Assembly: GCA_044222065.1 (NCBI GenBank)
Contig: JBGAOA010000020.1
Location: 1-59,908 of the forward strand
DNA: 59,908 bases
Direction of reading: 5' to 3'
From: Candidatus Eiseniibacteriota bacterium
GTDB taxonomy: Bacteria; Eisenbacteria; RBG-16-71-46
Position 1 is the first letter of the stretch; every line of letters begins with the position of its first letter. The notes beneath the pieces were generated by a model. The model made no database searches. It was not told the DNA's origin and saw only the letters and a list, made by a program, of their open reading frames with translations. The translations under genes were made by a program, and so were the position numbers. Below, piece by piece: positions 1 to 17,585 of the stretch.

Positions 1-126
1 CGTCGGGCTCGTGTGCGCGCGCGAGGTAGGTCATGCGCCACGGCGCCCAGAGCCGCGCGGGCCCGGTGCCGGAGGGCGTGGCGCCGCGCGTCCGTGCCCG
101 TCCGCCCGAGGTCCGGCCGGCGCGCT

Positions 127-900
127 TCACGTGCGCGCCTCCTTCGCCTGCAGCTCGCGCCAGATCGTCTCCGCTTCGTCGAGCTGCGGCACGGTGTTGA
201 TCCCGAGCGTCTCGCGGTAGTCCTCGGCCAGCACGACCGCAGCGCGGTGGCCGTTCGCGCGCAACAGCGCGACCGTGTCCGTCAGGTAGTACTCGCCCTG
301 CGCGTTCTCGGCCGTGAGCCGCCCGAGCACGGACGCGAGCTTCGGGTAGTCGAACACGTAGATGCCCGAGTTCACCTCGTCGAGCCGCCGGATCTCGTCG
401 CTCGCGTCCTTCTCCTCGACGATGCGGTCGATGCCGCCGTCGGCGGTGCGGACGACGCGGCCGTAGCCCTTCGGATCCGGAAGCCGCATGGAGAGCACGG
501 TGACGGCGGCGCCCGAGGCGCGATGTCCTTCGATGAGCGCGTGCATGGTCGACGCGCGCAGCAGCGGAGTGTCGCCGCACACGACGAGCAGGCTGCCGCC
601 GAAGCCCGCGAGCGCCTCGCCGGCGCACAGCACCGCGTGCCCCGTGCCCCGCTGTTCGGCCTGCACGGCCCATTCGACGTTCGGGGCGCCGCGGAACGCC
701 TCGACGACCTGCTCGCGACGGTGGCCGATCACCGCGACGCGCCGGCTCACGCCGAGCGTCTCGAGCATGCGGAGCACGTGACCGAGCAACGGCGTCCCCG
801 CCATCGGATGCAGCACCTTCGGCAGGTCGCTGTTCATGCGCTTGCCCATTCCGGCGGCGAGGATCAGGGCGACGGTCTCGGGATGCGAATAGCGCGTCAT
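127..900 (-). CDS. GlmU-like nucleotidyltransferase (N-terminal pyrophosphorylase domain only)
   Basis: ILAAGMGKRMNSDLPKVLH, EQRGTGHA, GDTPLL, GYGRVVR, NAQGEYYLTD motifs. ATG at 900 overlaps panC stop. No C-terminal hexapeptide acetyltransferase domain. Confidence 0.88.
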   Translation of the reverse strand: MTRYSHPETVALILAAGMGKRMNSDLPKVLHPMAGTPLLGHVLRMLETLGVSRRVAVIGHRREQVVEAFRGAPNVEWAVQAEQRGTGHAVLCAGEALAGFGGSLLVVCGDTPLLRASTMHALIEGHRASGAAVTVLSMRLPDPKGYGRVVRTADGGIDRIVEEKDASDEIRRLDEVNSGIYVFDYPKLASVLGRLTAENAQGEYYLTDTVALLRANGHRAAVVLAEDYRETLGINTVPQLDEAETIWRELQAKEART

Positions 901-6431: not shown

Positions 6432-9400
6432 TCAGCGCAGAACGACGAGCGTGCGCGTCTCGACGACGTGCGCGGCGGCGAAGCGCAGGTAGTAGACGCC
6501 GCTCGGGGCCGCGCGGCCGGAATCGTCCTTCCCGTCCCAGCGTTCGTGGTGCACGCCCGCGATCCGGCGCTCGTGCACGAGCGTGCGCACGCGGCGGCCG
6601 TCCACGCCGAACAGCGCGAGCTCGACGTCGGCATCGGACGCGAGCGCGAACGACAGCTCGCCGCCGCCGCGCAACGGGTTCGACGACGGCGCGAGCAGCA
6701 GTGTGCGCACGGGACGGGTGAGCACGGCGTCACCGCGGAGGTCGTCGAGCGCGACGGGTCGGTTCGACGCATCGCGCGCGACGAGCCGCTCGATGCGGAA
6801 GCCCGGATCGCCGGTGCGCCGCGCACGGAACGTGAACGTCGCGACCGGGCCCGTGCCCTCGATCCCGCGCGCGCGCAGGCCGAGCAGCGCGGCGTCGAGC
6901 GCGCCGCGCGCGGGCGACAGCGTGACGCCACCCTGCGCCTCGATGCGGCCCGACGAGCGCGTCTCGACCGGTTCCACCACGGCCGGGTTCCAGCCGAGCC
7001 GGGCCGAGAACGCCTGCACGCGTCCGTGCGCCTCGAGCGCGAGCGTGGCCGTGACCGTCTCCCCCGCCTCGACGAGCGCCGGCGCCGACAGCGAGAACGC
7101 CTCGGGCGCCGCGCTCGCGCCCGCTGCCGCGGCTTCGCGAGCGGCGAACTGCGGCGCCTGCACGACGGCGCCGAAGTTCCCCGCGAACACGAACAGGTCC
7201 TCGAAGTCGATGAGCCGGTCCGGCAGCGGACGTCCGTCGAGCGCGCCGCCCGCCGTGGGCCCGACGTCCAGGTACGCGACGCCGCGCGTCGTGATGTCCG
7301 AAGCGCCGATGCCGTAGTTCTCGCCGAGCAGCGACAGGTCCTCGGTGAAGTCCGCGTTGTTGCCCGTGCCGCGCACGAGCCCGTTCGAGACGTCGCCGAG
7401 CAGGTAGTTGAGCGTGCCGGGCGTGCGATTGGAAGGCGCCGAGGCGATGCCGCACGCATTCGTGACGATCGCGACGTAGTGCCAGAAGCCGCGCGGCGCC
7501 GTCGCGTCCACGTAGCCCGGTGCTGCGCCGGTCGCGATGAGCGACCACGGCGCGCCGGGCGCCGCGGCGCTGTCCGGCGGCGTCACGGGGCCGAGCGCGT
7601 CGTAGAGCGGGTAGCTGCCGAACGGCGCGCGGTAGAGCCGCACGGTGCCCGGGTCCCCGCTCGACCACGTGAGCGAGATTCCGCGCGTGGGTCCCGCGCC
7701 GTTGCCGTTCGCAATCGCGGTCGCGACGAGATCGTGGATCGCCGCCGGCGGCGCGTTGTTCACCGTGATCGCCGCCGCGGGGCCGGGAATCGCGGGCAGC
7801 GGCGCGCCGCCGCAATCGCGCAGGCCCACGGCGGTCACCGCGATCGCCGCCGCTCCGTCCACGCCGGTGGTCGCGAGGTCCATCGTGAACAGGGTGCCGC
7901 CCGTCGTCACTCCGCACGGCACGCCGACGATCGCCGCGTCCACCGTGTAGCGCCCGCCGCCGCGAGGCGTGACGTGGAGCTGCGAGTTCGGGAAGCCGGC
8001 GAGCCAGTTCCCGGCGTGGAAGTTCGACTCGGGAGTCGCGGGCGCGCAGAGCGCGAGGCGCGTCGTGTCGAGCGCGATCGTCACGCTGACGCCGCGCGCC
8101 GGATCGGACTCGCCGCGCGTGAAGACGACCGGCACGCTCGCGCACGGCTGCGCGTTCGACAGGCAGAGCCCCGTCGTGTTCGCGGCGACCATCGAGACCG
8201 GCGGCGTCGCGAACACCGGGAGCGTGAAGCTCTCGCTCGCCGTGCAGCCCGCGGTATCCGTGACCGTGACCGTGAACACGCCCACGCTCGTCGCGGGCGG
8301 CGTGCCCGAGAGGACGCCGTTCGCCGCACCGAGCGTGAGCCCCGTCGGCAGCGATCCGGCCGTGACGCTCCACGCGAACGGCGCCGCGCCGGCGCTCGAG
8401 ACGAGCGTCTCGGCGTACGCCACGCCGACGACTCCGAGCGGCAGCGCATCCGGGGTCACGGCCATCGCGGGACACGCGACCGCGAGCGTGTAGGCGCGCG
8501 CGCCCGGCACGCCGCCGGCGTCGGCGACGTTCACGGTGAACGCGTAGTTTCCGGCGGCGTAGCAGAAGCCCGAGATCACGCCGCCGCTCGAGAGCGTGAA
8601 GCCCGGCGGCAGCGCTCCGGCGCCGATCGAGTACGCGAACGGCGCCTCGCCCGGGGCCGCGGCGAGCGCCTGCGAGTACGGCGTCGCCGTCGTCGCGCCC
8701 GGCAGCGACGCCGGCGTGATCACGACCGGCGCGTTCTGGATGCGCAGGGAGGCGGGCGGACCGGCGGCGACCGGAATCGCGACGTTGTCGCAGTCGCGCG
8801 CCTTCGCCCACGTCACCTCGATCGGGCTCGAGCCGTCGCCGGCGACGGCCCCGAGTTCGACCGTGAACAGCGTCCCGCCCGCCGTGATGCCGCACGGCGA
8901 TCCGAGCAGCACGAGGTCCACCGCGTATTCGCCGCCGCCGACGTCGGTGACCAGCAGCTGCGCGTTCGGGTAGCCCGCGACCCACGGACCGGGCTGCACG
9001 CTCGCCGCCGGATTCGACGGCGTGCGGAGCGCGAGCCAGGCGGGGTCGATGCGGAAGCGCACGGTCACGCCGCGCGCGGGCGTCGCCTCGCCGCGCGTGA
9101 AGACGAACGGCACGGCCGGGTACGGATGCGCGCTCGACACCGCGAGCCCCGTCGTGTTCGCGGCGATGCTCGAGACCGGCGCCGACGCGAACACGTCCAC
9201 GACGTAGCTCTCGGAAGCCGAGCAGCCCGCCGTGTCGGTGACACCGATCGTGAAGGCGAACGTGCCCGTCGAGAGCGGCGTGCCCGAGAGAACGCCGGCG
9301 CTCGTGAGCGAGAGGCCCGAGGGCAGCGAACCGGCGGTGACGGCGAACGGCGCCGGAGCGAGGCTGCCGGGCGCGGCGAGCGTCTCGGCGTACGCGACTC

Positions 9401-12400
9401 CGGCGATGCCGTCCGGCAGCAGCGACGGGGTGATCACGAACGCCGAGCACGCGACGGCGAGCGTGTAGGCCCGCGTGCCGCGGCAGCCGCCGGTGTCCGT
9501 CGCGCTCACCGTGAAGGCGTAGTTCCCGGAATGGAGCGGCGTGCCCGAGAGCAGCCCCGCGGAAGTGAGCGCGAGCCCGGGGGGCAGCGCGCCCGAGGCG
9601 ACGGCGAAGCCGAGTGGCGGAGTGCCGGCCGTGGCCGTGAACGTGTCGGCGAACGCGACGCCCGCGACGGCGCCGGGCAGCGACACCGGGAGCACCGTGA
9701 TCGCGGTGCCGAGCAGGTTCACGGATCCCGCGGTTCCCGCCGCGACCGCGACCGGCGCATTCGAGCAATCGCGCGCTTCGACCGACGTGACGGTGATCGC
9801 TCCCGCGCCCTCGGGGCCCACGGCCTTCAGGTCGAGCACGAACAGCGTGCCGCCGCCCGTGATTCCGCAAGGTGCTCCGAGCAGCGCCTGGTCGATCGTG
9901 TAGGAACCGCCGCCGTTGTCGGTGACTTCGAGCAGTCCGTTCGTGTGACCGGCGAGCCACGAACCCGCGTGCACGCTCAGCGCCGGCGCGCCCGGAGTGC
10001 AGAGCGACAGCTTCGACGCCTCGAGCTGGATCGTCACGCTGATCGAGCGCACGGCCGCGGTGTCGGCGCGCGTGTAGACGACCGGGACGCCGATGCACGG
10101 CTGGCCCGGATTGATGCACAGGCCGCGGCCGTCGGCGGCGACGCTCGATACGGGCGGCGTCGCGAGCACCGTGAAGGTGTAGCTCTGCTCGCCGCGGCAG
10201 CCGCGCGCGTCGGTCGCGACGATCGTGAACACCGAGACTCCGGCCGCGAGCGGCGTGCCGCTCACGAGGCCGGTCGTGGACGAGAGCGCGAGCCCGGCGG
10301 GCAGTGCGCCGGACGCGAGCGCGTAGCAGTACGGCGCGCTCCCGCCGCTCGCCGCGAACGAGCGCGACGTCGCGGCCGAGAGCAGCGCGGGCGCGAGCGG
10401 CGGTGCGGGCAGCGCGATGACGGGGCACGGATTCGAAGCGTCGGACTCGATCGAGGCGACGTTGCCCGAAGCCGTCGTGCCGATCGTCGTGAAGGAACCG
10501 CCCGCGAACACCCATCCGGGATTCGCGGCGAGCGCGCGCACCGTGCCGTCCGAGTTCGGATTCCACGTCGTCGCGAGCCCGGTCTGCGGATCGATCGCGG
10601 CGAGCCGGTTGCGCGATTGTCCGCCGATCGCGCTCAGCACGCCGCCCACGTAGACGACGCCCGACGCGGGCAGCACCGTGAACACGGGGCCGTTCGCGTT
10701 CGGATTCCAGGCCGTGGCGAGCCCGGTCGCGGGGTCGAGCTCGGCGATGCGGTTGCGCGACTGCCCGCCGATCGTCGAGAAGAAGCCGCCCACGTAGATG
10801 CGGTCGCACGTGGCGGCGATCGAACGCACCGTCCCGTTCGCGTCCGGGTTCCACGGCAGCGCGAGGCCGCTCTCGCGATCGAGACGCGCGATGAAGTCGC
10901 GCGCCGCGCCGCCGACGTTCGAGAAGTTGCCGCCGACGTAGACGCCGCTCGCGTCCGGCACGATCGCGAACACCTGATCGTCCGCGGCCGGATCCCACGG
11001 CGTCGCGAGCGCCGTCCCGGCGTGCACTTCGGCGAGGTTCGCGCGCGAGGCGCCCGCCACGGTCGCGAACATGCCGCCGACGTACACCGACGTATCGGTC
11101 ACGGCGAGCGCGGTGACCTGGCCGTCGCATCCGGGATTCCACCCGCTCGGCGCTCCGGACGCGGTGTCCACCGCGGCGAGGTTCGCCCGTCCGAGCCCGC
11201 CGATCTGCGTGAACTGGCCGCCGACGTAGACGAGTCCGCCGCGCGTCGCGAGCGCGAGCACCTGGCTGTTCGCGTTCGGGTCCCACGCCGTGAGCTGTCC
11301 GCTCTGCACGTCGAGCGCGGCGAGGTTGTTGCGCCGCCACCCACCGACCGCCGTGAACAGTCCGCCGACGAACACCTCGGCGCCGTCCACGCCGATCGCC
11401 GAGACGCTGCCGAAGGCGGTCGGGTCCCAGTTCGTCGCGAGCCCGCTCGCGAGCGACAGCGCGGCGACGCGGCTGCGCGGCTGCCCGCCGATCGTGAGGA
11501 AGTCCCCGCCCACGTAGAGCCGGCCGTCCGAGATCCCGAGCGACTGGACCTGGTTGTTCGCGTTCGGATTCCAGCTCGTCGCGAGGCCGGTCGCGGCGTC
11601 GAGCGCGACGACTCGATTGCGCGTCTGTCCGCCGGCCGCGGTGAACTGCCCGCCCGCGTACACGACTCCCGCCGCGTACGCGAGCGCGAGCACCTGGTTG
11701 TTCGCGTTCGGGTTCCAGCTCGTCGCGAGCGCGGTCGTCGCGTGGAGCGCCGCGAGGCGGTTGCGCGCCTGGCCGCCGATCGACGTGAACTGGCCGCCGG
11801 CGTACACGGTGTCCCCCGCGACTTCGAGCGCGAACACGTTGCTGTTCGCGTTCGGATTCCAACCGGTCGCGAGTCCGGTCGTGCGGCTGATCGCGGCGAT
11901 GCGGTTGCGCAGCTGGCCGCCGATCGACGTGAACTGTCCGGCCACGAGCAGGTCGGAGCCGTGCCACGCGAGCGCGCGCACGATGTTGTTCGAGTTCGGA
12001 TTCCACGACGTCGCGACGCCGAGCGCCGTGTCCACCTCGGCGATCCGGTTGCGGGACTGGCCGCCGGCCGACGAGAACTGCCCCCCGAGGTAGACGCTGC
12101 CGTCGCGGAGCGCGATCGCTCGCACCGTCGAGTTCGGCGCGGGATTCCACGGCGCGACCGAGTTGTCGGCGCGCACGTACGCGGCGTTCGATCGGGCGAC
12201 GCCGTCCACGGCCGTGAACGTGCCGCCGAGGTACCAGCCGCCGCCGCCGTCCGACACGGCCACGAACACCTGGCCGTTGACGCGCGGGAAGCCCGGACGC
12301 GCGAGGCCGGTCGAGCTGTCCACCGGAACGCCCGAACCGGTCACGGGACCGACGGACGTGAAGCTGCCGCCGACGTACAGCTTTCCGTCCACGAGCAGCT

Positions 12401-12557
12401 CCGCGTTCACGGTGCCGTTCGTGACGAAGAAGTCCTCGCGCGCGCTCTGCGCCCGAGCCGGGGCGCCGCGCAGGAGCGCGAGCAGCGCAACGCCGGCCGC
12501 CGTCGCCCGGGCGATGCGGGCGAGTTCCAGGCGGGGGCGGCGGCGTCCGTGCGTCAC
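6432..12557 (-). CDS. giant secreted modular protein: ~14 x 48-aa beta-propeller repeats, 5 He_PIG-type Ig domains, 3 cohesin-like repeats, dockerin-like, cohesin-like and FlgD-Ig tail
   Basis: Signal peptide ending ARA. Repeats WNPNAN..V.AL...YxGG.FT.IGGQ.RNR.AALD. Ig motifs SG.LP.GL.L...G..SGTP. C-terminal DGRRVRTL..WDG.D..G....GVYY. Confidence 0.85.
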   Translation of the reverse strand: MTHGRRRPRLELARIARATAAGVALLALLRGAPARAQSAREDFFVTNGTVNAELLVDGKLYVGGSFTSVGPVTGSGVPVDSSTGLARPGFPRVNGQVFVAVSDGGGGWYLGGTFTAVDGVARSNAAYVRADNSVAPWNPAPNSTVRAIALRDGSVYLGGQFSSAGGQSRNRIAEVDTALGVATSWNPNSNNIVRALAWHGSDLLVAGQFTSIGGQLRNRIAAISRTTGLATGWNPNANSNVFALEVAGDTVYAGGQFTSIGGQARNRLAALHATTALATSWNPNANNQVLALAYAAGVVYAGGQFTAAGGQTRNRVVALDAATGLATSWNPNANNQVQSLGISDGRLYVGGDFLTIGGQPRSRVAALSLASGLATNWDPTAFGSVSAIGVDGAEVFVGGLFTAVGGWRRNNLAALDVQSGQLTAWDPNANSQVLALATRGGLVYVGGQFTQIGGLGRANLAAVDTASGAPSGWNPGCDGQVTALAVTDTSVYVGGMFATVAGASRANLAEVHAGTALATPWDPAADDQVFAIVPDASGVYVGGNFSNVGGAARDFIARLDRESGLALPWNPDANGTVRSIAATCDRIYVGGFFSTIGGQSRNRIAELDPATGLATAWNPNANGPVFTVLPASGVVYVGGVLSAIGGQSRNRLAAIDPQTGLATTWNPNSDGTVRALAANPGWVFAGGSFTTIGTTASGNVASIESDASNPCPVIALPAPPLAPALLSAATSRSFAASGGSAPYCYALASGALPAGLALSSTTGLVSGTPLAAGVSVFTIVATDARGCRGEQSYTFTVLATPPVSSVAADGRGLCINPGQPCIGVPVVYTRADTAAVRSISVTIQLEASKLSLCTPGAPALSVHAGSWLAGHTNGLLEVTDNGGGSYTIDQALLGAPCGITGGGTLFVLDLKAVGPEGAGAITVTSVEARDCSNAPVAVAAGTAGSVNLLGTAITVLPVSLPGAVAGVAFADTFTATAGTPPLGFAVASGALPPGLALTSAGLLSGTPLHSGNYAFTVSATDTGGCRGTRAYTLAVACSAFVITPSLLPDGIAGVAYAETLAAPGSLAPAPFAVTAGSLPSGLSLTSAGVLSGTPLSTGTFAFTIGVTDTAGCSASESYVVDVFASAPVSSIAANTTGLAVSSAHPYPAVPFVFTRGEATPARGVTVRFRIDPAWLALRTPSNPAASVQPGPWVAGYPNAQLLVTDVGGGEYAVDLVLLGSPCGITAGGTLFTVELGAVAGDGSSPIEVTWAKARDCDNVAIPVAAGPPASLRIQNAPVVITPASLPGATTATPYSQALAAAPGEAPFAYSIGAGALPPGFTLSSGGVISGFCYAAGNYAFTVNVADAGGVPGARAYTLAVACPAMAVTPDALPLGVVGVAYAETLVSSAGAAPFAWSVTAGSLPTGLTLGAANGVLSGTPPATSVGVFTVTVTDTAGCTASESFTLPVFATPPVSMVAANTTGLCLSNAQPCASVPVVFTRGESDPARGVSVTIALDTTRLALCAPATPESNFHAGNWLAGFPNSQLHVTPRGGGRYTVDAAIVGVPCGVTTGGTLFTMDLATTGVDGAAAIAVTAVGLRDCGGAPLPAIPGPAAAITVNNAPPAAIHDLVATAIANGNGAGPTRGISLTWSSGDPGTVRLYRAPFGSYPLYDALGPVTPPDSAAAPGAPWSLIATGAAPGYVDATAPRGFWHYVAIVTNACGIASAPSNRTPGTLNYLLGDVSNGLVRGTGNNADFTEDLSLLGENYGIGASDITTRGVAYLDVGPTAGGALDGRPLPDRLIDFEDLFVFAGNFGAVVQAPQFAAREAAAAGASAAPEAFSLSAPALVEAGETVTATLALEAHGRVQAFSARLGWNPAVVEPVETRSSGRIEAQGGVTLSPARGALDAALLGLRARGIEGTGPVATFTFRARRTGDPGFRIERLVARDASNRPVALDDLRGDAVLTRPVRTLLLAPSSNPLRGGGELSFALASDADVELALFGVDGRRVRTLVHERRIAGVHHERWDGKDDSGRAAPSGVYYLRFAAAHVVETRTLVVLR
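10450..12430 (-). repeat. intragenic tandem repeats, 144-nt (48-aa) period, beta-propeller blades
   Basis: 12 clear W(N/D)P units plus two degenerate N-terminal units in the translation. Confidence 0.85.
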
Positions 12558-12567
12558 GAGCGCCTCC

Positions 12568-13395
12568 TCACCTCAGGAGCAGGATGCGCGCGAAGCGCAC
12601 GCGGCCCGCGGCGTCGAGCCGTGCGAGATACACCCCGGCCGGCGCCGGCGCGCCCGACGCGTCGCGGCCGTCCCACTCGAGCACGCGCTCGCCCGGGGAC
12701 GCGAACGACGCGTCGAAGCGCCGCACCGTGCGGCCGGCGACGTCCATCAGCTCGAGCGACTGGCGGCCCGCGAACTCCGACCGGATTCTCAGCGAGATGG
12801 GTCCGCGGCCCGGATTCGGCGCCGCCGTGATCGAGGTCGCCGCGCCGCGCGCGGACTCCGGCGCGTCGAGCGAGATGCCGATGCCGATCGTCGCGCCGCT
12901 GCGCGTCACGGGCAGCACGAACAACCCGGCGTTGTAGAACGACGCACGGCGGATCGAGAGCGTCGTGACCTGCGGCGAGTTCGACGCGAGGAAGCGCAGC
13001 CGGTAGATCGTCCCGGGTCCCGTGAGCGAGATCTGGTTGCAGAGCAGCACGTCGTTCACGGCCACGCTGTCGCCCGCCGCGGAGAAGCGGTGGAACGTGT
13101 TCCCGCACGCGGCGCTGCACGCGCCGGTCATGAGGCAGCCCTGCTGCAGCGTGGTCGGCGACTCGGGCAGGAACGTGAGCGCGGCCGGGTCGTAAGCGAT
13201 GACGGCGTCGAAGCCGTTGAACGCCGAGCCCGCGGCCGGCACGACGACCTCGATCGTGAACTCGCTGCCGGGCGCGACCGTCGCGCTCGCGGGCGACAGC
13301 GCGACGCCCACCCCCGCGCGCGCGGCGGGCGGAACGAGCGAGACCGCGGCGAGCACGGCGACCGCGAGGCGGATTCGGTCGAGGGGCGTGGTCAC
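12568..13395 (-). CDS. secreted cohesin-like domain protein with FlgD-Ig tail
   Basis: GTG start and signal peptide ending ARA. Cohesin-like ATVAPGSEFTIEVVV..FNGFDAVIAYDPAALTF...GPGTIYRLRF. Tail PNP...DVAGRTVR...WDGRD..G..GVY. Confidence 0.78.
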   Translation of the reverse strand: MTTPLDRIRLAVAVLAAVSLVPPAARAGVGVALSPASATVAPGSEFTIEVVVPAAGSAFNGFDAVIAYDPAALTFLPESPTTLQQGCLMTGACSAACGNTFHRFSAAGDSVAVNDVLLCNQISLTGPGTIYRLRFLASNSPQVTTLSIRRASFYNAGLFVLPVTRSGATIGIGISLDAPESARGAATSITAAPNPGRGPISLRIRSEFAGRQSLELMDVAGRTVRRFDASFASPGERVLEWDGRDASGAPAPAGVYLARLDAAGRVRFARILLLR

Positions 13396-13408
13396 GTGAG
13401 GCTCCGGA

Positions 13409-16210
13409 TCAGCGCAGGCGCACGAGCGTGCGAGTGAAGCGCTCGCCGTCCGCGACGAAGCGCGCGAAGTAGACGCCGGGCGCGACGGCGCGGTGCGCGT
13501 CGTCGTCGCCGTTCCATTCGAGACGGTGAACCCCGGACTCGAAGCGCCCGCGGGCGAGCGTGCGCACGCGGCGCCCGTCCACCGAGTAGATCGCGAGGTC
13601 GACTTCGCCGGCGTGCGCGAGCGCGAAGGCGAGCGCGGAGCGGCCCTGCATCGGGTTCGGCGCGGGAGCGAGCAGCAGCGTGCGCGCCGGCGCCTCGCTG
13701 CGGACGCCGATCGCGACGGCCTCGGCGGCGAGCGCACGATTCGCCGCATCGCGCGCCGTGACGGAGCGCACGCGAATGCCGGGATCGCCGGCGCGCAGCA
13801 CGCGGAAGCGCACGCGCGCGACTTCGCCCTCGGCCGTGATCCCGCGATCGCGCACTCCGAGCAGCGCGGCATCCACGGTGCCGGGCGCGGGCACGAGCAG
13901 CACGCCGCCCTCGGCCTCGATCAGCCCGCCCGAGACGGTTTCGAGCGGCTCGACGACGGCGGCGTTCCAGGCCAGTTCGACCGAGAAGCCCTGCAGGCGT
14001 CCCGCGCCCGCGAGCGCGATCCGGGCCTCGGCCTCCGCCCCCGGCGTCACGTCGGACGGCGCGTCGAGCGTGAAGCGCTCGGGCGCGGCCGCGGCGCGCG
14101 CCGCCGATTCGGCGCGCTGCGCGATCAGCGCCGGCGCCGAGACGAGCCCGTAGTTCGTCGCGAACACGATCAGGTCCTCGAAGTTGATGCGCGCGTCCGT
14201 GAAGGGCCGCGACGTCGGCAGGAGGTCGGTCGTCGGTCCGACATCGAGGTACTGCACCCCGCGCGAGGTGATCAGCGCCGCGCCGATGCCGTAGTTCGCG
14301 CCGAGCAGCGACACATCGAGGTTGTCGACGCGGTTGTCGCCCGCGCCGGCGAGAACGCCGTCCGAGACGTCACCGAGCGCGTAGTTGCACGTCCCGGCCG
14401 TCGTGTTCGAGACGCCCGAGCGCCCGCCGCCCGCGTTCTCGACGAACGCGACGTAGTAGTAGAAGTCGCGCGTCGCGGGCTCGTCGGTCTGGCCGCTCGC
14501 GCTGACGGCCGTGAGCACCCACGGCGCGCTCGGCGGATAGCCCGGCGTCGGAGGCACGACGCCGCCCGCGTCGTCGTAGCGCGGATAGCCGCCGAAGGGC
14601 GCGCGATAGACCTCGACGCTCGTCCCCTCCGCGGGCATCGTGAACGTGAGCTGGATCTTCGCGGTGCCGTTCGCGTCGTTGCCGCTCGCCACTCGCGTCG
14701 CCGCGAGGTTCGCGATCGCCGCCGGAATGCCCGAGACGTGAAGCGCGTAGGGGCGCGCCCCCGCGCAACCGTTCGACGCCGTCGCCGTGACCGTGAACGA
14801 AAAGTCCCCGCCGCCTTCGGGCGTTCCCGAGAGCACGCCACCGCCCGACAGGGAGAGTCCGGCGGGCAGCGCGCCCGAGGTGACCGCGAAGGCGTGCGGC
14901 GCAATGCCGGCCGTCGCGGCGAGCGTGTCGGCGTAGGCGATCCCGACCGAGGCGGCCGCGAGCGCCGGCGGCGCGACGTCGATCACGGGGCACACCGTGA
15001 CGGCGTAGGCGCGCGCGCCCGAGCAGCTGTCCGCGTCCGTGGCCGTGATCGTGAACGAGAAGTCACCGCTGACCGATGGCGTGCCGCTCACCTCGCCCGT
15101 TCCCGAGTCGAGCGTCAGCCCGGTTGGAAGCGTACCGGCGCTGACCGCGAACGTGTAGGGACCGGCGCCGCCGTTCCCCGAGACGGTGTCCGCATAGCTC
15201 GCGCCGACCGTGCCTCCGAGGAGCGTCGAGGGCGAGAGCGCGATCGCCGGACACGTGATGGAGAACGCGTCGCTCGAGACCGGTCCGATCGAACCGCCGC
15301 TCGCCGCGAGCTGCTTGGAACCCTCGCGATTGATGCCCAGCGCCCCGAACGTCGCGAGGCCGTTCGCGTCGCTCGCCACCGCGCCACCGCCCGTGAGCGT
15401 GCCGCTCCCGATCAGCGTCAGCGTCACGTTCTCGCCCGCCACCGCGTTCCCGAACGAGTCGCGTACGCGCACCGTCACCGCCGGACTGATCGCGACACCC
15501 GCGACCGCCGCCGTCGGCTGCTGCTCGAACGCGAGCGTCGCCGCCGCGCCCGACGTGATCGCGAACGCATCGCTCGTCACCGGCGTCAGCGCGCCGCTCG
15601 ACGCCACGAGCTGCTTCGTCCCCGCCGTGTCCACGCTCAGCGCCCCGAACGTCGCGAGGCCGTTCGCGTCGCTCGCGATCGCGCCACCGCCCGTGAGCGT
15701 GCCGCTCCCGATCAGCGTCAGCGTCACGTTCTCGCCCGCCACCGCGTTCCCGAACGAGTCCCGCACGCGCACCGTCACCGCCGGGCTGATCGAGACACCC
15801 GCGACCGCCGCCGTCGGCTGCTGCTCGAAGGAAATGGTGTCGGGCGCACCGGCCACCACGTCGATCGAGAACGCGCGCGTCGCGGTGTCGGCGACCGCGT
15901 CCTCGACACGAACGATGAATGCGTACGTTCCCGCGACGGTACTCGTTCCCGCGATCTCACCCGTGCCGGAATCGATCGTGAGCCCGGGCGGCAGAGCGCC
16001 GCTCTCGAGCGACCAGGTGTACGGCGTCGTGCCGCTCGCCGCCTCGAGCGTGTCGACGTACGCGACTCCCGCGATGCCGCCCGGAAGCGAGGGCGTCAGG
16101 ATCTCGAGCGGGAGAGCGAACGCCTGAGCGTTCGTCGTGGCGAGCGCGAGTGCGGTGATCCAGCCGGCGAGTCCGGTGCGGCGCAAGGCGAACTTCGCGA
16201 ACGAGGGCAT
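13409..16210 (-). CDS. secreted modular protein: 3 He_PIG-type Ig, 2 tandem bacterial Ig-like repeats, dockerin-like, cohesin-like and FlgD-Ig tail
   Basis: Signal peptide, G.LP.GL.L/I..G..SGTP-type Ig motifs. C-terminal ~430 aa aligns by eye with the C-terminus of 6432..12557. Confidence 0.85.
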   Translation of the reverse strand: MPSFAKFALRRTGLAGWITALALATTNAQAFALPLEILTPSLPGGIAGVAYVDTLEAASGTTPYTWSLESGALPPGLTIDSGTGEIAGTSTVAGTYAFIVRVEDAVADTATRAFSIDVVAGAPDTISFEQQPTAAVAGVSISPAVTVRVRDSFGNAVAGENVTLTLIGSGTLTGGGAIASDANGLATFGALSVDTAGTKQLVASSGALTPVTSDAFAITSGAAATLAFEQQPTAAVAGVAISPAVTVRVRDSFGNAVAGENVTLTLIGSGTLTGGGAVASDANGLATFGALGINREGSKQLAASGGSIGPVSSDAFSITCPAIALSPSTLLGGTVGASYADTVSGNGGAGPYTFAVSAGTLPTGLTLDSGTGEVSGTPSVSGDFSFTITATDADSCSGARAYAVTVCPVIDVAPPALAAASVGIAYADTLAATAGIAPHAFAVTSGALPAGLSLSGGGVLSGTPEGGGDFSFTVTATASNGCAGARPYALHVSGIPAAIANLAATRVASGNDANGTAKIQLTFTMPAEGTSVEVYRAPFGGYPRYDDAGGVVPPTPGYPPSAPWVLTAVSASGQTDEPATRDFYYYVAFVENAGGGRSGVSNTTAGTCNYALGDVSDGVLAGAGDNRVDNLDVSLLGANYGIGAALITSRGVQYLDVGPTTDLLPTSRPFTDARINFEDLIVFATNYGLVSAPALIAQRAESAARAAAAPERFTLDAPSDVTPGAEAEARIALAGAGRLQGFSVELAWNAAVVEPLETVSGGLIEAEGGVLLVPAPGTVDAALLGVRDRGITAEGEVARVRFRVLRAGDPGIRVRSVTARDAANRALAAEAVAIGVRSEAPARTLLLAPAPNPMQGRSALAFALAHAGEVDLAIYSVDGRRVRTLARGRFESGVHRLEWNGDDDAHRAVAPGVYFARFVADGERFTRTLVRLR
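15338..15829. repeat. near-identical intragenic direct repeat, 300-nt period (15338-15529 and 15638-15829)
   Basis: Direct comparison: 192 nt with 6 mismatches by my count. Confidence 0.92.
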
Positions 16211-16653: not shown

Positions 16654-16889
16654 TCGAACGATCCTGAGCGCGCGGCGGCTCGTGGGTAAATCGCCCCTTC
16701 CCGTTTGCCGGATCCCGCATTAAAGTAGCCGCCACTTGCAGTTCTTCTTTCCGGTCGAACACCTTGGGGACGTGACACGACTCGTCACGTCTGCGTTCGT
16801 GAGTGCCCCCCGCCTCGCGGCGTAATTGTCCTCAAGCCGTCCGCCGTCTTGTTTCCGCAAGGCGGCCTACCACAAGGAGGGGTACACCG

Positions 16890-17585
16890 ATGAAGCGATT
16901 CGCTACTTCTCTCCTCATTCTCGGTGCAGCCGCCACGCTGTCTGCCAGCATCGCCTCCGCGGCGCTTCGCGTGCCGCAGGTGCCGGTCCTCGGCGGCTCG
17001 CTGCAGGGTTACCTGAACAGCGTCGGCGAGTCGATCAACGTGGGCACCGATCAGAATGCGGTGCAGACCTGGTCGACGACCGTCTCCAACAACTCGACGT
17101 TCACGCTGCAGATCGAACTCGCGGGCAACGCCGCGTCGAACTCGGTCGGCATCTACAACGGTGGCGCGGCTGTTCCTGCGCTCTATCAGGTGTTCCCCGG
17201 CGCCGCGAGCGCCGGCTGGTTCGCGACCTGCTCGTTCCGTGCGGCGCCGACCCGCGTCGTCGTGAACCTGTTCGACGCGAACGCCGTGTTCCAGGGCTCG
17301 ACGACCTACCTCGGCGCCGACGCCACGAATTTCGGCTACTACCTCGCGGGCCCCGGCGGGACGTTCTACTCGCAGGACGCTCGCAACGCCGGCAGCGCGG
17401 CGCAGATGCTCGCGTATGCGGGCACCGGCGGCAACGTCGGTCAGTGGTGGCTCGCGATCGAAGACCTGTCGATCGGCGGCGGTTCGGATCAGGACTACGA
17501 CGACTGTGTGCTGTTCCTCGAGTCCATCACGCCGACGCCCACGCAGCGCATGAGCTGGGGCGCGCTGAAGGCCAGCTTCCGCTGA
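16890..17585 (+). CDS. secreted DUF4114-like protein with C-terminal SWGALKASFR motif
   Basis: AAGGAGG RBS, signal peptide MKRFATSLLILGAAATLSASIASA, LAIEDL..GGSDQDYDDCVL (DUF4114-type acidic motif), TPTPT linker, then terminal motif. Confidence 0.8.
   Translation: MKRFATSLLILGAAATLSASIASAALRVPQVPVLGGSLQGYLNSVGESINVGTDQNAVQTWSTTVSNNSTFTLQIELAGNAASNSVGIYNGGAAVPALYQVFPGAASAGWFATCSFRAAPTRVVVNLFDANAVFQGSTTYLGADATNFGYYLAGPGGTFYSQDARNAGSAAQMLAYAGTGGNVGQWWLAIEDLSIGGGSDQDYDDCVLFLESITPTPTQRMSWGALKASFR

Follow-up and report, generated by a model that had tools for sequence, protein, structure and literature searches.

The window analysed here, the whole 59,908-nt stretch of contig JBGAOA010000020.1 from a Candidatus Eiseniibacteriota bacterium (GCA_044222065.1), contains three adjacent genes whose modules very probably constitute a real cohesin-dockerin system. 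The genes and the modules described below all lie on the minus strand, and the intergenic gaps read from the sequence are 13 and 10 nt, which confirms the co-oriented trio, 10-13 nt apart, of a preliminary description of this DNA. Gene 1 (16210..13409, 933 aa) encodes a signal peptide, one He_PIG, two Big_1 and two further He_PIG domains, a cassette of an FN3-like module (termed X), a dockerin-like module and a cohesin, and a C-terminal tail that resembles FlgD_ig and the sorting tails of a type IX secretion system (T9SS). Gene 2 (13395..12568, 275 aa, GTG start) encodes a signal peptide, a single divergent cohesin and a tail, and is thus little more than the cohesin-like domain plus tail that had been recognised before. 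Gene 3 (12557..6432, 2041 aa) encodes a signal peptide, a 14-blade propeller region, five He_PIG domains, three internal cohesins, the X-dockerin-cohesin cassette and again a tail. The terminal cohesin of the cassette is referred to as cohT, the internal cohesins of gene 3 as cohI and the cohesin of the small protein as cohS. Genes 1 and 3 share the whole C-terminal cassette, consisting of the X module, an Asp-rich duplicated segment, cohT and the tail, so that the earlier observation of a duplicated Asp-rich segment followed by a cohesin-fold domain applies to both large proteins, while the X module and the He_PIG/Big_1 stalks had been left unmentioned. The head of gene 3 (10443..12440), identified by Pfam matches to DUF5122/Rax2-like repeats and by motif spacing, comprises 14 repeats of 48 aa, with 13 motif matches spaced by 47-48 aa and one gap of 96 aa; these repeats likely form two seven-bladed beta-propellers, a two-way split that we infer. 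The N-termini of all three proteins are basic and hydrophobic with an AxA motif and, judged by eye, have the look of Sec signal peptides, as had been proposed. In agreement with the preliminary description, a Pfam scan of the three proteins found no catalytic family.

Structure models were obtained with AlphaFold2 and compared with known folds using VIA and Foldseek, and they place the sandwich domains among the cohesins. The model of gene 1 cohT (13697..14080, residues ~711-838), also matched in Foldseek, aligns to the solved cohesin 4uyp_A (VIA Z 13.7, root-mean-square deviation (rmsd) 2.8, 127 residues aligned), and that of the third internal cohesin, located directly before the X module of gene 3 (7761..8198), to 6kgc_A (Z 16.9, rmsd 2.3, 138 aligned). 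Each of the top 18 rows for cohT and the top 20 rows for cohI is a cohesin-containing chain, adhesin and pilin domains rank beneath them with Z ~10 or less, and both models match the nine-stranded jelly-roll sandwich of the cohesin fold (PF00963). The two other internal cohesins (9714..10151 and 8739..9176) were assigned by phmmer, profile search and hhalign; with pairwise phmmer E values of 1e-40 to 1e-47, the three additional cohesin-like repeats noted previously in the largest protein stand, and gene 3 cohT (6723..7103) matches gene 1 cohT at E 6e-36. The assignment of cohS (12877-13314) is based on hhalign, on the Pfam Cohesin matches of its relatives and on the complex prediction described below. 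All three types are mutually homologous by hhalign (probability 93-95%, with FN3 and tail controls at ~1% or less), and the Pfam Cohesin model matches 33 of 38 relatives of cohS at E up to 0.1 (best 3.9e-9), while the window's own cohesins score under the Pfam cut-off. A single-sequence search of solved structures with the cassette gave no match, and profile searches gave weak matches only, all of them to cellulosomal cohesin-containing chains. In cohesins, the dockerin-binding plateau is formed by strands 8-3-6-5. The corresponding residues of cohT (S743, D780, A782 and R820) are 90-100% conserved and the face covaries with the dockerin, cohI shares its motifs, and cohS uses the same strands in the model. 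Fold searches, profile comparisons and structure models support a reading of the modules as cohesin-fold and dockerin-like rather than generic Ig or carbohydrate-binding domains. Conserved, covarying Cys pairs, which likely form disulfides, occur in cohS (window 12877-13314) and in the cohI of gene 3, while cohT of genes 1 and 3 has none.

The X module of gene 1 (14384..14728, residues ~495-609) matches titin FN3 (VIA Z 7.8, rmsd 2.2, 89 aligned) and shows inter-domain couplings to the dockerin in the covariation analysis, suggesting that it packs on the dockerin; the X module of gene 3 (7407-7751) was assigned from model and fold search. The dockerin-like module that follows (14144..14383, residues ~610-689, in gene 1; 7167-7406 in gene 3, the latter again from model and fold search) consists of two loop-helix, F-hand-like repeats and a linker helix, with model helices at 136-144, 150-156 and 183-192. 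Both composite fragments were modelled with high scores: X-dockerin-cohT of gene 1 with a predicted local distance difference test (pLDDT) of 96 and a predicted template modelling score (pTM) of 0.91, and cohI-X-dockerin of gene 3 with a pLDDT of 94.6 and a pTM of 0.87. The latter aligns along CohI9-X-DocII of CipA (3kcp_A, Z 16.4, rmsd 7.7, 246 aligned, model 3..350), a whole-fragment match whose span includes the dockerin region, and 4fl4 and 3kcp occupy ranks 2-5 in a separate fold search of the fragment. No stand-alone dockerin chain is found among the fold-search matches listed, which are filled by larger domains and therefore give no evidence against the fold, and a route through the ESM Atlas leads from the dockerin to Dockerin_1 clusters at only about 0.90. 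In the loops, numbered after the canonical motif, Asp occupies positions 1 and 12 in 263/263 and 263/263 sequences for repeat 1 and in 263/263 and 260/263 for repeat 2, and position 5 is Asp or Asn. Each of the predicted calcium loops is broken up by an insert (7 and 12 residues), so that neither is a canonical 12-residue calcium loop. Judged from its sequence, this dockerin is very unusual and is overlooked by standard domain libraries.

The idea of cohesin-dockerin pairing put forward in the preliminary description is supported in that the dockerin has a covarying cohesin partner, cohT, under tree control. Among 263 cassette sequences, dockerin I681 (repeat 2, position 14, in helix 3) and cohT G741 (strand 3) are coupled with a z of 22, rank 2 of all couplings, and dockerin A684 is coupled to cohT A782 with a z of 6.7. 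At the first pair a trade of side-chain size is observed, with Ile, Met or Leu facing Gly in 170 sequences, Val, Ala or Thr facing Ala in 69, and other combinations in 24; the Ile/Gly pair of gene 1 obeys this rule. On a tree built without the two trait columns each state changes 26 times, independent pairs changed in the same direction 7.5 times and in opposite directions 0.0 times (median p 0.008), and the association is the best of 107 columns tested under this control. The linker between Y687 and F713 comprises 15-43 residues (median 20), with at least 17 residues in 260/263. Dockerin helix 3 therefore likely binds the downstream cohT of its own chain; closure in cis appears possible because of the high pTM of the monomer model, while covariation alone is compatible with pairing in cis or in trans.

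A second binding mode is predicted for the small protein. Complex prediction of X and dockerin with cohS, run alongside three controls, passed the mark with a score of 0.76 (best control 0.00); this mark is reached by 116/157 solved and 2/215 mismatched pairs, rates that hold roughly for the alignments used here. The runs share 100% of contacts, and the partner pLDDT is at least 93. An engagement of the dockerin by the small protein, for which a role as cap or adaptor had been proposed beforehand, is thus predicted by the model. In the predicted interface, dockerin helix 1 is placed on strands 3, 5, 6 and 8 of cohS, and dockerin positions 14 and 17 (S634 and G637, near-invariant with 243/263 and 257/263) face cohS residues 33-34 and 89-93, touching G34 and V89. 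By hhalign, these two residues align to G741 and A782 of cohT, indicating that cohS is placed in a two-fold mirror arrangement of the cohT mode derived from covariation. Accordingly, the prediction has cohS on dockerin helix 1, turned by about 180 degrees relative to cohT. The interface also takes in A684, so that the two modes likely overlap and are probably mutually exclusive, and the small protein would likely open or cap the self-clasp. The distribution of cohS follows that of the cassette: it is present in 102/206 genomes of the phylum, 101 of which also hold the cassette, and of the 121 distinct cohS genes whose upstream 1.4 kb was available, 84 have a dockerin within 1.5 kb upstream. 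Usually, one cohS is found with each tightly spaced cluster, which may comprise a single cassette gene or several.

The cohT-type face is preserved in the internal cohesins, with the Ser, Asp, Arg and Asn retained in 186, 215, 207 and 208 of 226 sequences, respectively. Their strand-3 Gly or Ala agrees weakly with the code of the dockerin, 119 combinations being large-Gly, 34 large-Ala, 23 small-Ala and 15 small-Gly, and coevolution analysis of the cohI-X-dockerin fragment (134 sequences) shows no strong coupling between cohI and the dockerin. The family profile finds no further dockerin of the cassette family in the genome beyond those of genes 1 and 3, so that any cohI partner of this family would be one of these two. 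A cohI adjoining X would have to bind a dockerin in trans, and since cohI2 and cohI3 of gene 3 carry Gly, the dockerin of gene 1 with its Ile/Gly code would suit both.

The common FlgD-Ig-type tail reported earlier was found by Pfam (FlgD_ig, PF13860) above the cut-off at all three C-termini (13412..13678 in gene 1, 12571-12840 in gene 2 and 6435..6704 in gene 3). It was rejected as evidence for a complex, because it is generic and occurs on 214 six-frame open reading frames (ORFs) of the genome. By contrast, a genome-wide count with the cassette profiles, as had been suggested, yields only two genes, 1 and 3, and the cohS profile matches only gene 2. With the T9SS type A model TIGR04183 (cut-off 23) gene 1 scores 21.6 bits and gene 2 15.0, while gene 3 gives no match; the tail also resembles the C-terminus of the PorU model. 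In this genome SprA and PorU score over the cut-off, as do eight matches to the PorV family, and SprA is found in 145/151 genomes of the phylum. A search with the model of GldM, a component of the PorL/M (GldL/M) motor, found no match in the genome, and all control genomes were equally blank. The tail is read here as a tag for T9SS-like export. Across Eisenbacteria-type genomes (here on C118, C77, C55, C38 and other contigs), an expanded PorV family occurs together with SprA and PorU and with no GldM match, possibly reflecting a variant T9SS whose motor is different or has diverged. Furthermore, the C-terminal motif [ST]WGx[VIL]Kxx[YF]R, a candidate second sorting signal, ends 42 ORFs of the genome, including one in the window at 16803-17585 on the plus strand, for which an NCBIfam scan gave no match.

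The cassette is widespread, bearing in mind that related genomes are not independent of one another in these counts. It was found in 118/206 genomes of the phylum at E 1e-10 or better, with weak matches in 8, at 1-9 matches each. Named records with the cassette are mostly Ca. Eisenbacteria and two are Krumholzibacteriia; around one of the latter, 34/61 genomes also match. In the phylum of a Krumholzibacteriia record (genomes G206-G268), more distant matches are observed (E ~1e-31 to 1e-40), some of which cover X and dockerin only. One family lacks both the cassette and cohS (0/41), yet has SprA in 30/32 genomes. The same three-gene order with three cohI is found in 6/20 regions fetched for paired hits, the large gene being split in one of them. 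The cassette is matched at E 1e-30 or better by 391 proteins (50% identity level), and among the best 150 of these together with gene 3 the order X-dockerin-cohT-tail is almost fixed; at least one cohI is present in 107/151, a single cohI in 96/151, and a cohI directly before X in 81. The heads of the relatives vary and include propellers, beta-helices (11), LamG, Calx-beta, FG-GAP and Ig stalks. When 82 relatives, mostly apparently full-length picks, were scanned for catalytic domains (42 at E 1e-5 and 40 at E 1e-8), none (0/82) carried a glycoside hydrolase (GH) or peptidase family over the cut-off, with one GH43 match below it, and 11/82 have beta-helix domains that could be lyases. DNA of the genome occurs in activated-sludge, bioreactor and biofilm metagenomes. 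Many related loci encode a fourth partner, cohX, with a signal peptide, one cohesin with a cohT-type face, a WGxxKxxYR end and no FlgD tail; 29 distinct cohX-type genes were found, 28 of them in cassette loci (e.g. L140:9355-9933, L150:5402-5953 and L126:9306-9920), and the cohX profile found none in the present genome.

The reading that we favour, with confidence slightly above even, is that of a non-cellulosomal system with T9SS-like export, in which subunits are linked into an adhesive surface assembly via a dockerin with two predicted orientations of binding. The non-cellulosomal nature had been proposed before and is borne out by the trio and by the 82 relatives, none of which has a catalytic family over the cut-off. 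In the proposed sequence of events, helix 3 would bind the downstream cohT, probably closing at first a clasp within the chain by which the subunit stays monomeric while it is exported, and cohS would then take the same dockerin via helix 1 in the rotated orientation, the two modes being mutually exclusive owing to their shared residues. Subsequently, cohS would anchor, cap or initiate one end, and the freed cohT would catch the dockerin of another subunit; in the weakest step, cohI with its cohT-type face would provide branch points. The heads would serve to adhere or to bind a matrix and not to hydrolyse; they are the propeller and Ig stalks here, and in relatives beta-helix, lectin-like and FG-GAP domains. 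That a T9SS-secreted polymer grows in this way by partner exchange, with self-clasped export, release of cohT by cohS, capture of the next subunit and branching through cohI, is put forward tentatively. A number of observations speak against such a linked assembly. The gene 3 pair itself, Phe/Ala, breaks the size rule and is seen in only 2/263 sequences; of 31 multi-cassette loci, four have mixed pairing codes, and every chain in them is self-matched. A clasp within the chain on a 20-residue linker should outcompete partners in trans. For cohS, the pass of the complex prediction may reflect likeness to solved cohesin-dockerin pairs, conservation is not higher in the predicted interface than elsewhere (0.75 vs 0.74), and paired covariation of 94 cassette-cohS pairs (within 2.5 kb, of 103 paired) gave no coherent cross-chain signal; in this analysis I681-G741 stays at rank 1, and position 14 of dockerin repeat 2 does not track cohS G34. 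For cohI, the tree-controlled association with the dockerin is borderline (p 0.03 in one run and 0.06 once the trait columns are taken out, first among 71 columns), and mutual information with average product correction (MI-APC) gives no signal (rank 3609/11952). In addition, each subunit carries its own export tail, so that none obviously needs an anchor, and Pfam Dockerin_1 (PF00404) matches 0/64 cassettes, likely because of the loop inserts. Of the architecture envisaged in the preliminary description, chaining into a branched scaffold is thus not established, since the best-supported partner of each dockerin lies in its own chain, namely the cohesin 15-43 residues downstream; branching via the internal cohesins meets the borderline signal just given, and a sheath receives no support from anything tested.

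Several of these points are accommodated by a permanent clasp, in which dockerin and cohT of one chain stiffen or lock the base of the stalk without chaining, cohI serve as spacers, and cohS binds transiently or not at all. The strongest covariation indeed lies within one chain, the compact monomer model is confident, the linker length has a sharp lower edge, mixed-code loci remain self-matched, and cassette and cohS do not covary; nevertheless, the near-invariant face of helix 1 is the very site where cohS is placed, cohI keeps the cohT-type face residues, and cohS tracks the cassette both by genome and by position, so that we regard a permanent clasp as rather unlikely, if a serious competitor. 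Unlikely to a greater degree is a role of cohS as a dedicated folding or export chaperone, which would shield the dockerin in the helix-1 mode in the periplasm and, once secretion is complete, be released in favour of cohT or cohI: the overlap of the predicted modes and the usual presence of one cohS for a tight cluster of cassette genes would fit, but its own export tail suggests that cohS likely leaves the periplasm, and one copy serving several genes would suit an anchor or initiator equally well. A cellulosome-like complex with gene 3 as the scaffoldin, recruiting dockerin-bearing hydrolases encoded elsewhere, could be read from the match of cohI-X-dockerin to the C-terminus of CipA and from the three internal cohesins of gene 3, which with cohT make four, in line with the several cohesins of a scaffoldin. 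It is very improbable, as the family dockerin profile matches no genes of the genome other than 1 and 3, the one other Pfam Dockerin_1 protein of the genome has no hydrolase domain recognised by eye, and the enzymes expected of such a complex are lacking among the 82 relatives, where no GH or peptidase family exceeds the cut-off. Least probable of all, and close to negligible, are generic beta-sandwiches with a calcium-binding insert and no cohesin-dockerin function, to which the 64 cassettes without a Pfam dockerin match and the sub-threshold Pfam scores of the window's cohesins would point; the fold searches, the dockerin-cohesin covariation at the binding face and the complex prediction argue against them.

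That cohesin-dockerin pairs occur outside cellulosomes has long been noted as a puzzle, and few of their functions have been worked out. No publication on the present cohesin-dockerin family was found, Eisenbacteria and Latescibacteria included, in a search that covered few subscription journals. For Clostridium thermocellum, the part of the work consulted describes X-dockerins that bind two different cohesins in opposite orientations, through helix 1 or helix 3, so that two specificities on one X-dockerin have a precedent, which supports the two-mode reading (PMC5141474). The type II pairs of this organism (CipA/ScaA and CipB XDoc with the anchoring cohesins of ScaF/SdbA and ScaC2; 3kcp, 4fl4, 5k39, 5g5d) resemble the present system in the order cohesin-X-dockerin, in fold, in the small single-cohesin partner and in one dockerin used in two orientations, the latter predicted here. 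They differ in that here one of the two partners comes after the dockerin on the same polypeptide, inserts of 7 and 12 residues interrupt the predicted calcium loops, X matches FN3 folds, T9SS outer-membrane parts and T9SS-like tails are found in place of S-layer homology (SLH) domains, and no hydrolase payload was found. In Ruminococcus flavefaciens, the insert-bearing dockerin behind the X module of CttA/ScaB binds the single-cohesin anchor ScaE (type III); ScaE is anchored by sortase, and the dockerin sits at the C-terminus, where no cohesin is known to follow it. The ScaE cohesin 2zf9 matches the models at Z 10.6-12.3, and no sequence-level link between the two systems was found. For Amy4 of R. 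bromii, a cohesin recognises the dockerin of its own chain, multimerisation was proposed, and Sca2 is a single-cohesin anchor, as stated in the portion of the article consulted (PMC4611034). This amylosome thus shares with the present system a self-recognising cohesin-dockerin pair and a single-cohesin partner, whereas Amy4 is one GH13 enzyme of a sortase-using host and the cassette described here is fixed on at least 150 different proteins (50% identity level), comes with an X module and has a dedicated partner gene next to it. Proteins with a dockerin and several cohesins are reported for archaea of the ANME groups (in part of PMC9012536), and a scaffoldin-like protein with a C-terminal domain, together with dockerins on enzymes, for Ca. 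Stygibacter of the Cloacimonadota (in part of PMC8542988); further background can be found in sections of PMC12484212 and PMC9705933. The Archaeoglobus fulgidus pair 2xdh, likewise from outside the cellulolytic Firmicutes, is among the top fold matches of cohT and cohI. In contrast to the present dockerin, the A. fulgidus, ANME and Stygibacter proteins were found with standard domain libraries, and the parts of the ANME and Stygibacter reports consulted describe no X-dockerin-cohesin-tail cassette with a dedicated second partner.

The present system offers a defined, testable case: hundreds of surface proteins in two uncultured phyla share one fixed cassette, its dockerin escapes standard domain libraries, its pairing code can be read at the level of single residues, and a dedicated partner is predicted to bind in a second mode. 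If the exchange model were true, it would represent a new way of building a bacterial surface structure: the partner-exchange polymer would combine a pilus-like donor-exchange logic with cellulosome parts and interchangeable adhesive heads, in more than half of the sampled genomes of the phylum. Sludge, bioreactors and biofilms are settings in which adhesion matters. The modules are all small; they could be expressed and could supply an orthogonal, switchable cohesin-dockerin pair for protein engineering.

The locus is flanked by an OPT transporter and housekeeping genes (Pfam), and a promoter and terminator scan gave no signal exceeding chance. Short, low-depth RNA contigs from three runs cover the three genes, and among those listed none crosses a gene junction; these data are uninformative, and neither transcription nor co-transcription follows from them. 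In the related loci L033, L048, L129, L219, L229 and L233 the cassette genes are split across frames, through assembly error or decay. The genome also contains a second, unrelated three-gene cohesin-dockerin operon (C98:10352-18124, L154-L157). Its large protein is repeat-rich and by eye beta-helix-like, and it ends in a dockerin of canonical type, which Pfam matches over the cut-off, then a cohesin-like domain and the tail. Of the two others, one has two cohesins matched by Pfam and probably a third, and the other is small and consists of a cohesin and a tail. This operon is of the same design with a different dockerin lineage, and its dockerin-cohesin part matches 21/121 genomes of the phylum.

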